Shown: positions 41,734 to 62,257, numbered from the stretch's first letter. The stretch is DNA of 64,000 nt from a virus (IMGVR_UViG_3300050026_000241), one strand, 5' to 3'. The notes: a model not told the origin generated them from the sequence alone. Program-made: numbers and translations.

Positions 41734-41762
41734 CACACACACACACACACACACACACACAC
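41734..41762 (+). repeat. (CA)~14 dinucleotide microsatellite in 5' leader
   Basis: seen directly. Confidence 0.9.
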
Positions 41763-41778
41763 GACAGGGAGCAACACA

Positions 41779-42288
41779 ATGCAGACTTTCATTTACCGTT
41801 GGCAAGAGCGAGCCGGGGTCGAAGGCACCCGGCGGGGCGAAATCGACGGCCCTATTCACGAAATCCGGGGCGATGCCTACGCCCTTTGGACCGTCGCCAA
41901 GCAGCTTGAATTGCCGGTGCGCCCTTTCTGGTCCGAATTCACCGACCTTGACGGCAATGCCGCCGACATCTGGGGCGCCAGTATAGCCGCGAAAACCGAG
42001 CGGCTACGCCCGCCAACGGAGTTGCTTTGGATTCGCATTGGCGATGCCGGCGACTACGCTTCCTTTACCGACCTTGACGCCGCCATTGACGACCTGAACA
42101 TGATGGAAGTGGGCACCGTCGATTATTGGCTTGACGGCGGGGTAGGAATTGGATTCGCTACCTGGAATTACCACGGCCACGATTTTGTTTCATTCTTCTG
42201 GGGCGATGCCGAAGCCAATCTGATTCGCGCCTTGAACGCGGATGAAAAAGCCTACACCGAAAACAACCTAGAAGCGTACCTGAACTAG
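41779..42288 (+). CDS. hypothetical protein
   Basis: cassette promoter; leader contains (CA)~14. Confidence 0.55.
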   Translation: MQTFIYRWQERAGVEGTRRGEIDGPIHEIRGDAYALWTVAKQLELPVRPFWSEFTDLDGNAADIWGASIAAKTERLRPPTELLWIRIGDAGDYASFTDLDAAIDDLNMMEVGTVDYWLDGGVGIGFATWNYHGHDFVSFFWGDAEANLIRALNADEKAYTENNLEAYLN

Positions 42289-42294
42289 ACGCCA

Positions 42295-42519
42295 ATGGAA
42301 ACGACCATCATTCGCGTGCAATCGCACCCCGCCGATGTTTACCACGGTAAGGTATGGTATGGCCCGCGTGACAAGAAGGCCGCCAAGTCCCCCGGCTTTT
42401 CAACCTGGGAAGCGGCCCGCCGTTGGATTTTCAGCCAGCCGAAAACCGGCCGGTTCAAGGCAACACGCCAGTCAACCATCCTGAAAAACGGCACGCTCTT
42501 TACCACATGCTCTGATTGA
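42295..42519 (+). CDS. hypothetical protein
   Basis: 3' end encodes -10/leader-like sequence for next gene. Confidence 0.45.
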   Translation: METTIIRVQSHPADVYHGKVWYGPRDKKAAKSPGFSTWEAARRWIFSQPKTGRFKATRQSTILKNGTLFTTCSD

Positions 42520-42583
42520 GTAGTAACTTAACAACACAACGCAACCGAAGCCCAAACCGGAGGAAAAGAAAGTGGAAACCCCC

Positions 42584-42775
42584 ATGAAGAGCGTCCGCGA
42601 CAAAATCGCCGAGTTGACCCAGGGCGCGAAGTCGGTTTGCGACTTCGACCGCATCGTTTCCAAGGCCGGCGGCCTTGGGGCATTGTGGAAGCAAATCGGC
42701 GGCGACCGCGACGAATTCGCCTACGAATGGGACATGGTGAAAAACTCCATTAAGAAAATGACTAGGTACGATTGA
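42584..42775 (+). CDS. hypothetical protein
   Basis: ATG (alt GTG 42572). Confidence 0.45.
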   Translation: MKSVRDKIAELTQGAKSVCDFDRIVSKAGGLGALWKQIGGDRDEFAYEWDMVKNSIKKMTRYD

Positions 42776-42805
42776 GTAACTTAACAACACAACAGGAACA
42801 CCAGA

Positions 42806-43342
42806 ATGAGCCAGACTGAAAACTATCGTGATCTTGCCGAATCGGACGCCAAGAGCACCGTTAGCAACTTCCGCGATGAAATCGTTGAAATGCTGCTTGA
42901 CGACGGCAAGGCCAGCGATGACCTACTGAACGATTACCCGGGCGGCGACAGTTACCACCACGAAACGCACACTGACAAGTGGTACAACTTGCAGGAAGCG
43001 GCGGCCGTTCTCGACCAGCTTGACAATTTTGAGGAAACCGACAGCGGGCTATGGCAAGGACAAGACATGAAAACCGCCCTGGCGACCTGCGCGGCCTACA
43101 CCTATGCCAATGCGGTCTACTCCGAATGGCATGACCTTATCGGCACAATCAACGACCGGGCCGAAGATATTCTCTCCGATTTTATCACGGAAGAAACCGA
43201 CCTGGAAACCGAGCGTGACGAGCCTCGGACAATGACCGAAGCCGCCCGCACCTGTGCGGCCGAGAAGCAAGCCTTGCTCGATTCGCTGGACATACGCAAG
43301 GCGGACGCCTTGCGAGAAATGGTTGACGAAATCGCAAGCTAG
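42806..43342 (+). CDS. acidic hypothetical protein
   Basis: leader AACAGGAACACCAGAATG. Confidence 0.5.
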   Translation: MSQTENYRDLAESDAKSTVSNFRDEIVEMLLDDGKASDDLLNDYPGGDSYHHETHTDKWYNLQEAAAVLDQLDNFEETDSGLWQGQDMKTALATCAAYTYANAVYSEWHDLIGTINDRAEDILSDFITEETDLETERDEPRTMTEAARTCAAEKQALLDSLDIRKADALREMVDEIAS

Positions 43343-43468
43343 GCCGGCGCGCTAGGGACTGATCGACCGGCGCGCTAGACAAAACAAGAGTGACCCTGTT
43401 GTGTGGCCGGGGCCTGCAAGCATCTACTCACTTGCGGCCCCGGCCCTCTGAATTACCCTGTTGCGATT

Positions 43469-43506
43469 GGCCGGGCAGATCGTTTCCGCCCGGCCTATTT
43501 TTATTT
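43469..43506 (+). terminator. intrinsic terminator candidate
   Basis: GGCCGGGC...GCCCGGCC stem + TATTTTTATTT. Confidence 0.5.
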
Positions 43507-43532
43507 GACTTCTTGCAATCACATGCTATGAT
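43505..43532 (+). promoter_or_regulatory. sigma70-like promoter cassette
   Basis: leaderless ATG 43539. Confidence 0.6.
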
Positions 43533-43538
43533 TTAGGT

Positions 43539-43724
43539 ATGAGTACAATTCAAGCAAAGGATTTAGTCGAGGGTCAAACGGTCGAAACTCGCAAGGGTGT
43601 CAAGACAGTAAAGACCAGCGGCTACCTTAACGAGAAACTTTGGCGGCTGGAATTCACCGACTGGGAAATCTGCCTTTGCCGGCATGACCACCCATTTCCC
43701 ACTACATCGGAGCGACCAGCATGA
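43539..43724 (+). CDS. hypothetical protein
   Basis: cassette promoter, leaderless. Confidence 0.5.
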   Translation: MSTIQAKDLVEGQTVETRKGVKTVKTSGYLNEKLWRLEFTDWEICLCRHDHPFPTTSERPA

Positions 43725-43945
43725 GAGCAAGGTTCTACGGAATCAAAGGGCGATGCGGCTTCGTTCACGCCTGTTGTTTTGACGCCTTTGTAGAGGCCAA
43801 TGCCGTAAGGGATGTGCAAGGCCGCATTGTTCGCCGGCCGCTTGCCGACGCCATTGTCTACACGCTAGGACACGCCGGCAACGGCCCTTGCCTGCATTGC
43901 AAGGAAGTGCTATCGGCCGCCCCAAACACGGCCCGGAGAAATTGA
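43721..43945 (+). CDS. Cys-rich hypothetical protein
   Basis: CGFVHACCF...CLHC. Confidence 0.45.
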   Translation: MRARFYGIKGRCGFVHACCFDAFVEANAVRDVQGRIVRRPLADAIVYTLGHAGNGPCLHCKEVLSAAPNTARRN

Positions 43946-43949
43946 TTCC

Positions 43950-60852: not shown

Positions 60853-61044
60853 ATGCACAACATTCGCCTATCATTGACGCCGGCCGGCTGGGTTGCCCGG
60901 TACACTGACCCGGAGATTTACCGGCTATTCAAGACCGTCACCTTATTGACCACTTTCACGGCCAACGCCGCGCCTATGGCCGTTCTAGCGGAAATTAGAC
61001 GACTTAACCCGGCCGCCGATGTTCAACTAGACCTGGGAGATTGA
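60853..61044 (+). CDS. hypothetical protein
   Basis: 3' end shares CAACTAGACCTGGGAGATTGA with ~36268. Confidence 0.45.
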   Translation: MHNIRLSLTPAGWVARYTDPEIYRLFKTVTLLTTFTANAAPMAVLAEIRRLNPAADVQLDLGD

Positions 61045-61062
61045 CTTGACTTCGCCCCGGCG
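61035..61062 (+). promoter_or_regulatory. sigma70-like promoter cassette (doubled -35)
   Basis: TGgTAGTAT; leader with (CAACG)n to 61128. Confidence 0.55.
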
Positions 61063-61069
61063 CATGGTA

Positions 61070-61105
61070 GTATTAAGTAACAACGCAACGCAACGCAACG
61101 CAACG
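61070..61105 (+). repeat. (CAACG)n pentanucleotide repeat in 5' leader
   Basis: 5-6 units; exact count uncertain. Confidence 0.7.
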
Positions 61106-61127
61106 CAACGCAACAGAAAGTAGAACA

Positions 61128-61388
61128 ATGAGCAACACAACCGCGACCGCAACCGAAATCTATCCGAAAGAACTTTTCGACCTTGCCGACGCAATCAAAC
61201 GGCAGCCGCCCGACATTCGGGCCGCCCTTGCCGCCCCGTTGAAAACGGCCCTTGACGCCGCCGCCCGCCTCCGGCTCGTCCTGACGCTAGTACAGGACAC
61301 CTTGCAACAGATACGGCTTGACATCAAGTTTCTGACCTTCGACCTTGAGGCAACGCGCCGCGAGCGCGATGCCGCGAAAGGATTGTAA
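61128..61388 (+). CDS. hypothetical protein
   Basis: leader has (CAACG)n. Confidence 0.5.
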   Translation: MSNTTATATEIYPKELFDLADAIKRQPPDIRAALAAPLKTALDAAARLRLVLTLVQDTLQQIRLDIKFLTFDLEATRRERDAAKGL

Positions 61389-61390
61389 CA

Positions 61391-61612
61391 ATGGCAGCGA
61401 TTGCAACATTCAACGGCCGCAATATGAAAACCATACGCCGGGCCGATGCCACGTCTTTCGGACCCTCTTCCGGGGGTCAAGACGGCCGCAACGAAACACA
61501 TGCAAAGCGGGAAGTAGCGGAAGAAGTTGCCGCCCGACTTACACAACTCGATTACCTTTTCCCTACCCAAAAACGACCCCAGAAACGACCCCAGAAACGG
61601 AGCAGCAAATGA
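61391..61612 (+). CDS. hypothetical protein
   Basis: KRPQKRPQK from 12-nt duplication. Confidence 0.45.
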   Translation: MAAIATFNGRNMKTIRRADATSFGPSSGGQDGRNETHAKREVAEEVAARLTQLDYLFPTQKRPQKRPQKRSSK

Positions 61613-61767
61613 AACCCATGCGAACGTACAAGGACAAAAATAACCTGACCGGCACGGCCGCCGAACTCGCTACAATCGAAAAGGTCCGCACGGAGTTTCA
61701 AGCGGAATGGCTTTTGCAGAAGGCCCGCCTGACGCGCAAGACGGCCGCCGCCAAGAAGCGGGCTTAA
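61609..61767 (+). CDS. small basic protein
   Basis: 52 aa; ATGA overlap; approximate. Confidence 0.35.
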   Translation: MKPMRTYKDKNNLTGTAAELATIEKVRTEFQAEWLLQKARLTRKTAAAKKRA

Positions 61768-61799
61768 CTTTCAACTTAACTTTCGACTTAACTTTCGAC
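61768..61799 (+). repeat. 12-nt tandem iterons CTTAACTTTCGA(~x3) upstream of -35
   Basis: seen directly. Confidence 0.75.
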
Positions 61800-61827
61800 T
61801 TGACTTCGCCCCGGCACATGGTATTAT
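61800..61827 (+). promoter_or_regulatory. sigma70-like promoter cassette preceded by 12-nt iterons
   Basis: TGgTATTAT; leader to 61852. Confidence 0.55.
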
Positions 61828-61851
61828 TGAGTAACCTAACAGGGAGAAATC

Positions 61852-62124
61852 ATGGCAAAAAACAACGGCAAATGCAGCGAGTGTAACAAGAGCCTGCGCA
61901 TCAGCGTAGAGCAGTTTATCGGCCCCGCCAAGAGTAAGCCGATTGCCCCCGGCACTACAATGCCGGGTGGCACTACAACCTGCATAAAGCAACTAAGCGG
62001 AACAAGCTGGTGCGCGGATTTTCGCGTAGGAAACTGGGCAATCATCGACGGCCGCAAAATCTGCACGACCTGCGCAGAAGCTAAACTCGACCCGAACAAT
62101 CACCCGGCACTTGAGCCGACTTGA
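61852..62124 (+). CDS. Cys-rich hypothetical protein
   Basis: CSECN...CTTC. Confidence 0.5.
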   Translation: MAKNNGKCSECNKSLRISVEQFIGPAKSKPIAPGTTMPGGTTTCIKQLSGTSWCADFRVGNWAIIDGRKICTTCAEAKLDPNNHPALEPT

Positions 62125-62168
62125 GAATCGACTTGAGAATCGACTTGAGAATCGACTTGAGAATCGAC
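62117..62168 (+). repeat. 12-nt tandem iterons CGACTTGAGAAT x4 upstream of -35
   Basis: seen directly. Confidence 0.8.
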
Positions 62169-62196
62169 TTGACTTCTCCCCGGCACATGGTAAGAT
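62169..62196 (+). promoter_or_regulatory. sigma70-like promoter cassette preceded by 12-nt iterons
   Basis: TGgTAAGAT; leader to 62258. Confidence 0.55.
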
Positions 62197-62257
62197 TGAG
62201 CATACAAACAACGCAACAGGAACAACACAACAGGAACACCGCAACAGGAACACCGCT

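Follow-up and report, generated by a model that had tools for sequence, protein, structure and literature searches.

The window analysed here is a 64,000-nucleotide stretch of DNA from an uncultured phage (IMGVR_UViG_3300050026_000241), in which the genes between 38.7 and 62.6 kb all lie on the + strand. The subject of this study is a group of short tandemly repeated sequences within the 5' leaders of genes in this region, i.e. in the transcribed DNA between promoter and start codon. A preliminary description of the window had named seven such repeats and proposed that many of them duplicate the Shine-Dalgarno (SD) element or alter the spacing between promoter and start codon, thereby tuning translation or giving slipped-strand phase variation of expression. 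Proteins of the window with matches in PHROGs include a DNA methyltransferase, an exonuclease, a Thg1-like enzyme, radical-SAM proteins and a TnpB-like transposase. A megablast search of INPHARED (50,697 deposited phage genomes), using query pieces of 24 kb and 22.7 kb, returned no match.

The repeats lie in a region punctuated by near-identical sigma-70-type promoters, which were identified using regular-expression and fuzzy scans:

38695..62587, + strand: array of 34 near-identical sigma-70-type promoter copies
38729, 43539, 46551, 48741, 49358, 50417 and 50751, and also 52537 and 54161, + strand: leaderless family promoters, assigned from the position of the ATG relative to the -10 element

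The family consensus is TTGACTTCT-N7-CACATG(G/C)TATGAT, with a TTGACT -35 element, a constant 16-bp spacer, a TG extended -10 and a TATGAT -10 element. Downstream of every family promoter is a small open reading frame (ORF), most of these ORFs belonging to no known family. A separate consensus scan found 48 promoter-like sites versus 10.7 +/- 3.4 in shuffles; terminator-like sites were not in excess (27 versus 29.5 +/- 6.2 expected), and none adjoined a promoter. The 34 promoters are of two kinds. For about 10 of them, the ATG is located 6-7 nt past the -10 element (for example TATGATtgcagtATG), and the other 24 are followed by A/C-rich leaders of 15-55 nt. About 10 early genes appear, from this arrangement, to produce leaderless mRNAs beside 24 genes with SD-containing leaders, and a similar mix is seen in relatives, with 27 leaderless units out of 123. 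We set the transcription start site (TSS) at the seventh base after the -10 element, as given by the position of the ATG in the leaderless genes.

The leaders typically take the form (A/G)GTTCA-CAAC(A/G)CAAC-AGGGAG-CAAC...ATG. They contain 44.5% A, 28% C and 7.5% T (A+C 73%), and the trinucleotide ACA is found 11.7 times per 100 nt versus 1.9 in the region, a six-fold enrichment. They are predicted to be nearly unstructured, with a mean folding energy of -0.044 kcal/mol/nt versus -0.15 for segments of the same length.

Repeats were located using Tandem Repeats Finder and direct reading of the sequence. The seven named in the preliminary description are:

41734-41762, + strand: (CA)14.5 microsatellite in the leader of a 169-aa gene (41779-42288), spanning transcript positions of about +10 to +38
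61081-61114, + strand: pentanucleotide tract (CAACG)6.8 within the leader that precedes the gene at 61128, the SD of which is AGAAAG
53197-53242, + strand: 21-nt unit CAGTCAACCAACAGGAAGCAG x2.2, perfect, doubling the SD AGGAAG, with the proximal SD 8 nt from the ATG at 53244
58322-58345, + strand: GCAACAGGGA x2.4, with the SD AGGGAG present twice, 8 nt separating the proximal one from the ATG at 58351
60627-60650, + strand: GCAACAGGGA x2.4 in a second, different leader, that of the gene at 60654
55116-55140, + strand: GAATATCTAACA x2.1, beginning right after the -10 element, SD not duplicated
62207-62256, + strand: 14-nt unit x3.6 (91% matches), containing the SD AGGAAC three times, 34, 20 and 6 nt ahead of the ATG at 62258

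The CA tract had been reported as about 14 units missing from a paralogous leader, and that leader (41243-41270) indeed has CACA alone; the promoter/leader modules at 41209 and 41691 (leader start GACTTCAATCAC) match at 46 of 47 nt. The CAACG tract exists, yet had been placed at about 61070-61105 with 5-6 copies and is corrected here on both counts, and the ends of the 21-nt duplication have been refined. The doublings of GCAACAGGGA and GAATATCTAACA were found at the sites reported, as were the three occurrences of CAACAGGAAC, which fall within the 14-nt array. Duplication of the SD is true of four of the seven (53197, 58322, 60627 and 62207), but not of (CA)n, (CAACG)n or the 55116 repeat. 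Copies are 100% identical within nearly all repeats.

Four items absent from the preliminary description were added, namely a repeat at 40901, a composite tract at 45082, duplications spanning start codons, and arrays running into -35 elements; a short tract at 42532 is listed with them:

40901-40923, + strand: ACAACAGGA x2.6, with a doubled SD AGGAAC before the gene 40925-41194, intercistronic and without a family promoter
45082-45108, + strand: composite tract of CACAA/CAACG, of low complexity (x5.4, 81% matches), belonging to the leader of the gene at 45116
45113-45124 and 51059-51089, + strand: duplications spanning a start codon
50958-51008, + strand: 12-nt array TTTCGACTTGAC x4.2, running into the -35 of promoter 51002
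61763-61806, + strand: 12-nt array CTTAACTTTCGA x3.7, running into the -35 of promoter 61800
62117-62172, + strand: 12-nt array CGACTTGAGAAT x4.7, running into the -35 of promoter 62169
42532..42546, + strand: short CAACA/CAACG tract in a leader-like region after a degenerate promoter

The 40901 repeat likewise duplicates the SD. At the two start codons, ACCGCAATGATT x2.6 (51059-51089) encodes MITAMITA and ACCATGACCATG (45113-45124) repeats the ATG, each gene start having two in-frame ATGs. The three perfect 12-nt arrays (x3.7-4.7) are partial copies of the -35 region; they were considered as extra promoters and rejected, their TTGAC-like hexamers having no -10 element at the correct distance. 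Also of the -35-proximal type is TTGACTTGAC, at 55082 and 61041.

The leaders are strongly enriched in repeats compared to chance expectation. Perfect tandem repeats of at least 16 nt were counted in the 24 leaders (797 nt) and in 1000 dinucleotide-preserving shuffles. They cover 186 of the 797 leader nt (23%) versus 10.9 +/- 12 nt (~1.4%, maximum 54) in shuffles, and are present in 6 of the 24 leaders versus a shuffle mean of 0.56 (maximum 3). Counted by position, 26.6% of leader positions are in repeats versus 1.5% of the remaining window. The window as a whole contains 40 perfect short tandem-duplication loci versus 1.8 in dinucleotide shuffles, and such loci number 0.44-0.91 per kb of the window, compared to 0.46 for relatives and about 0.1 for unrelated contigs; the excess is also seen in a distant relative (L024). 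The commonest period in the window is 12 (14 of the 40 loci), and periods in coding DNA are mostly multiples of three. Other duplications of the window include those at 28412-28477 (12 nt x5.5), 15044-15091 (21 nt x2.3), 49724-49761 and 50323-50356. This genome-wide excess suggests a mutational bias specific to the lineage.

The position of the repeats relative to the elements of expression is constant. All leader repeats are downstream of the -10 element and 5' of the proximal SD, which is 5-8 nt from the ATG in all repeat-bearing leaders. None is located in a coding frame, in the -35/-10 spacer or in the SD-ATG gap, and a change in unit number would shift neither a frame, nor the -35/-10 spacing, nor a defined element: since the repeats lie 5' of the proximal SD, it would only lengthen an unstructured 5' untranslated region (UTR). 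The (CA)n tract is predicted to be 0.96-1.0 unpaired (~99%) at any length, and the predicted accessibility of the SD is unchanged from 2 to 18 CA units. With 150 nt of coding sequence added to the fold, the prediction for the (CA)n gene is an SD that is 18% unpaired and a tract that stays free. Across the 24 leaders, neither leader length nor repeat presence correlated with predicted ribosome-binding-site accessibility (Spearman rho -0.01 to 0.26, p at least 0.2). We also considered a compensatory arrangement, in which long or repeat-bearing leaders would accompany structured ribosome-binding sites, and found no support for it, there being no correlation with 60, 100 or 150 nt of coding context.

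Contigs of the same phage, 99.5-100% identical to the window, were found by exact-protein look-ups in at least 10 other samples, each assembly showing one consensus allele. One of these, a 27.8-kb contig from sample 3300048772, is 100% identical to the window and probably derives from the same source. Between identical flanks, the number of CA units is 14 in the window and in L006, 12 in L005, 11 in L003 and 10 in L004; the observed (CA)10-14 tracts are 20-29 nt long. L005 also has one additional CAACG unit at window position 42537 (tract 42532-42546), where L003 and L004 are as the window, and the 12-nt array at 50958-51008 is one unit shorter in L016 and L017. Thus, length differs among near-identical genomes at (CA)n, at one CAACG tract and at one 12-nt array. 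The other six of the seven named repeats are invariant, each over one to six other assemblies: five for (CAACG)6.8 at 61081, two for the 53197 duplication, one for 55116, six for 58322, five for 60627 and four for 62207. Invariant as well are the arrays at 62117 (four assemblies) and 61763 (five). In the ~50 kb compared at 99.5% identity or above, repeat-unit changes are the sole small insertions or deletions, except for 1-bp differences at cassette junctions and in a divergent patch of L003 (~33.9-34.4 kb). The slipped-strand part of the earlier proposal is supported by these unit changes, and the pattern of variation, as read from the assemblies, matches ordinary microsatellite behaviour. 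Look-ups with neighbouring genes for further (CA)n alleles returned the same contigs. As for the divergent patch, ~480 bp of L003 (3300-3770, versus window 33890-34370) are ~90% identical inside a contig that is 99.9% identical, which indicates a recent import by recombination.

The preliminary description had recommended comparison with related phages. A metagenome scan using the promoter pattern produced 62 loci, of which about 45 contain the family promoter repeatedly and match parts of the window at 70-90% identity. The repeats are not conserved: leaders of orthologous genes in relatives of 75-90% identity are without the repeats of the window. (CA)n is absent from three orthologous leaders, and orthologues of the (CA)n gene carry caatctacaacagggagc or caatccacaacgcaacagg. 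There is a single SD copy in two orthologues of the gene at 58351, a single copy of the unit in three orthologues of the gene at 62258, and an unrelated single leader in three orthologues of the gene that follows the 55116 repeat. The 50958 array is absent from two orthologues of the gene at 51065, and the 61763 array from four orthologues of the gene at 61852. Relatives have leader duplications of their own: for the gene at 45116, the orthologue in L049 has a 12-nt x2.7 duplication that includes the SD, the one in L075 being single-copy; two other relatives have 12-nt leader duplications; and a further two (L079 and L028) differ from each other by one 13-nt unit. The 45116 orthologues in L075 and L049 also show a different duplication, ATG included. 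Because orthologous leaders lack the repeats of the window while relatives carry their own duplications elsewhere, we regard the repeats as young, lineage-specific and recurrent rather than as conserved elements. Leaders of the orthologues of the two genes behind the 41209 and 41691 modules differ from each other; since the two modules of the window are nearly identical nonetheless, gene conversion of the module is suggested, followed by expansion of a CACA seed.

We consider it probable that the repeats are young products of slippage or tandem duplication in the leaders of early genes, where they are tolerated or mildly tune translation without forming an on/off switch. Replication slippage, or tandem duplication mediated by microhomology, would create them, in leaders and, for a few, just upstream of the -35 element. 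The leader is already self-repetitive because it is built of CAAC(A/G) units, AGGGAG and GCAAC, and this would provide built-in direct repeats with periods of 2, 5 and 10 nt as slippage substrates. Unduplicated leaders hold CACA, CAACGCAAC and GCAACAGGGAGCAACA, i.e. 1.5-2 copies of the 2-, 5- and 10-nt units that are found expanded; such proto-repeats include GCAACAGGGAGCAACA at 60371 and CAATCACAACAGG at 41243. The high lineage-wide load of short perfect tandem duplications would feed the leader repeats, and duplications would persist mostly in leaders because there is no reading frame to preserve there, provided that the proximal SD-ATG module is spared. From the preserved SD spacing it would seem that insertions survive only where the ribosome-binding core is left untouched. 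(CA)n is beyond the length at which dinucleotide repeats turn hypermutable and now varies between populations, and units of 10-21 nt in 2-3 copies are not hypermutable and are stable over the same timescale. The overall build of the leaders probably favours efficient initiation; inserted RNA is A/C-rich, ACA-rich and predicted to be unstructured, and extra copies would add more of the same. A tuning of translation by the repeats is plausible. Initiation would be affected not at all or in a mildly graded manner, through additional single-stranded CA-rich sequence on which ribosomes dock or through a second SD; no effect or a small graded one is expected because tract lengths are beyond the plateau described below, predicted SD accessibility is constant, and no correlation with leader length or repeats was found. 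On present evidence, the repeats would mostly be mutational by-products.

Several points weigh against this interpretation. Firstly, the same 10-nt duplication, of GCAACAGGGA, is present in two leaders (58322 and 60627), which could be due to parallel slippage, gene conversion or selection. Secondly, (CAACG)6.8 precedes the weakest SD of the set (AGAAAG), which could be compensation and not accident. Thirdly, repeats are found in 6-7 of 24 leaders here versus ~3-4 of 96 in relatives, which could point to selection, even if this comparison is biased against finding repeats in relatives, whose contigs are short and break at repeats. Finally, the TSS appears to be where we placed it with the ATG of the leaderless genes, 7 nt after the -10 element, as its sole anchor.

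The explanation that survives best beside this one, and which we nevertheless hold to be unlikely, is that the repeats are translational enhancers or standby sites expanded by selection: CA/ACA-rich RNA or a second SD would recruit the 30S subunit, probably via protein S1, resulting in a heritable dial of gene dosage. Literature on E. coli and Salmonella shows that translation is enhanced by CA-repeat 5' tails and by ACA motifs without strict positioning, the tails acting by length (PMC5934652, Sterk et al. 2018; PMC3879156, Yang et al. 2014; see also Martin-Farmer & Janssen 1999, as cited in these two papers for CA-repeat/ACA enhancers). The likeness to the phage leaders is close: in both, CA-/ACA-rich RNA, predicted to be single-stranded in the phage, lies 5' of the SD with loose positioning, and the construct used in the CA-enhancer experiments was, to the letter, a (CA)n 5' tail. 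The ACA enrichment and predicted lack of structure of the leaders, the position of the longest CAACG tract before the weakest SD, and an SD of the (CA)n gene predicted to be mostly paired in its longer context next to a free tract are all in favour of this explanation. Against it, no correlation with predicted ribosome-binding-site accessibility was obtained and orthologues do not retain the repeats. Moreover, the effect of CA-repeat tails reaches a plateau at 16-18 nt in E. coli (PMC5934652), which the (CA)10-14 tracts of the phage exceed, and in Salmonella two SDs were not additive, expression being no higher than with one (PMC3879156). The known enhancers also differ in being engineered tails or short native enterobacterial motifs, whereas the phage has natural repeat-expanded leaders, one of which is length-polymorphic in the wild. 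By analogy, CA/ACA enhancers and standby sites are the closest functional counterparts of the leaders.

A further explanation, which we find improbable, is that the repeats are contingency loci, in which reversible slippage switches or strongly modulates early genes within a population as a form of bet-hedging. Such an interpretation would be in keeping with the length variation of (CA)n among otherwise near-identical assemblies and with the existence in bacteria of simple-sequence repeats in 5' UTRs that control expression, such as (AGAT)n of Moraxella catarrhalis uspA2 and (ATCTTTC)n of Haemophilus influenzae hmw1A. Like these, the phage repeats are transcribed, lie between promoter and start codon, and have a strain-dependent copy number, and by analogy we regard the uspA2/hmw1 repeats as their closest genetic counterparts. 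But the hmw mechanism depends on RNase III and on a long hairpin, one arm of which is G-rich. For the phage it was rejected: the tract, predicted to be unpaired, lacks a complementary GU/TG-rich partner, and the coding sequence contains no (TG)n run. Unlike the bacterial repeats, those of the phage are not kept in relatives, and their carrier is a phage, not a host-adapted pathogen. Only one of the seven named repeats varies, and the genes downstream have no known function. The 12-nt arrays resemble (TAAA)n of Neisseria nadA (PMC2791445), which lies upstream of its promoter and modulates transcription, in that they abut the -35 element and one is variable in copy number, but their units are partial copies of the -35 region and not a separate tract between operators, and no regulator is known. 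The earlier suggestion of phase variation is thus unsupported: classical phase variation appears unlikely because no tract is in a frame, in a promoter spacer or in the SD-ATG gap and there is no counterpart to the hmw1 hairpin; lengths past the plateau and the invariance of six of the seven repeats speak against it as well.

We also consider it doubtful, though conceivable, that a lineage with a raised rate of short duplication (with its 12-nt mode) exploits the promoter-leader modules, (CA)n, CAACG, the SD units and the 12-mers at the -35 element together acting as reversible, heritable dials for the dose of early, possibly anti-defence, genes that differ between host populations.

Very doubtful, in our view, is the proposal that the conserved leader CAACAGGGAGCAA is an operator for a translational repressor of phage or host, similar to RegA of T4, or for a GcvB-type small RNA, duplications adding sites and thereby shifting the timing of early shut-off. 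The leader motif is conserved well past the SD in about 20 leaders and in relatives of 75-90% identity, and GcvB targets CA-rich enhancer sequences (PMC3879156). However, no candidate regulator was identified, no Rfam family was found in the window, and the conservation is equally explained by the spread or gene conversion of promoter-leader modules, as seen in the 41209/41691 pair and in the insertion/deletion junctions located in promoters.

Finally, that the repeats or their length differences are artefacts of assembly or sequencing is hardly credible: it is true that the window terminates in an artefactual poly-C tail (63828-64000) and that many related contigs break at repeated promoters, but the tracts are all at most 55 nt and so within single reads, each repeat is identical in one to six independent assemblies from different samples, and the flanks of (CA)n match perfectly. 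The end of the window itself consists of a GC-rich run and a 114-nt poly-C tail, which we attribute to artefact because an independent assembly (L086) agrees with the window as far as 63827, beyond which it runs on in ordinary sequence that includes a second copy of the preceding ~70-nt segment.

Larger changes also take place at the promoters. L007 is without window 57673-58252, with the crossover inside promoters 57633 and 58270, and L008 has an extra gene cassette of ~490 bp inserted directly after the -10 element of promoter 59740 (~59770). A third cassette difference (43690-44050, in L003) has its junction at a short microhomology of the CATGACC type. This architecture is reminiscent of the promoter-early stem-loop (PeSL) cassettes of T4-type phages (PMC2839356, PMC4122927), which share with it many conserved early promoters flanking small ORFans and gain or loss of cassettes with junctions inside the repeated promoter; here, two of the three junctions are in, or right after, promoter copies. 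Unlike in PeSL cassettes, the promoters are not paired with a stem-loop terminator, their sequence is unrelated to that of T4, and expansion of leader repeats has not been described in the PeSL work.

A second sub-class of promoter, TTGACTTCT..GAAAAGGATGGTATGAT, is present in about nine copies upstream of the main array (window 10693-36517), mostly leaderless. Two of these, at 36144 and 36490, precede one and the same gene start of ~80 nt, indicating a segmental duplication (36143-36225 / 36488-36571). Searches of Pfam and PHROGs with the genes downstream of the promoters were uninformative, the PHROG matches all being of unknown function besides a weak Lar-like match at 55151-55528 (E = 9e-4). 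Elsewhere, the ORF at 23208-24194 strongly matches tRNA-His guanylyltransferase (Thg1-like, phrog_4717, E = 2.5e-75), and no tRNA genes were found in the window. The 444-aa ORF at 26392-27726 matches a PHROG transposase (phrog_506, E = 6e-23) and looks TnpB/OrfB-type; a 79% identical copy of it adjoins a family promoter in a related contig (L038).

A scan of 185,579 genomes with the promoter pattern gave a single hit, to a contig in a Bacteroidetes metagenome-assembled genome (L084, CAVSGB010000324.1). Its terminal ~320 bp (2689-3012) match window 61493-61770 at 85% identity and include a family promoter; the rest of the contig has ~40% GC. As it is phage-like only over these ~320 bp and probably a chimeric contig end, it was rejected as evidence of a host. 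In IMG/VR, the promoter pattern was found at only two near-identical loci (L001 and L002) with one promoter copy each, L001 having only weak similarity to the window in tblastx, and scans with three repeat-flank patterns gave no matches.

In practice, these observations chiefly help annotation and the typing of strains, where (CA)n and the 12-nt array can act as population markers, and they come with the caution that assemblies of such phages break at repeated promoters. Of greater interest as leads are the lineage-wide duplication load and the architecture of the promoter modules. The leader repeats show that the 5' leader of a phage can hold a truly hypervariable microsatellite in natural populations, and that standardised promoter-leader modules are hotspots of both small change, by slippage, and large change, by cassette gain and loss. 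If leader length affects translation, such repeats would be simple, mutable dials of early-gene dosage and a natural test bed for the CA-rich standby/enhancer model. Should the doubtful proposal of reversible dose dials be true, it would amount to a contingency-locus strategy in the early region of a virulent phage.

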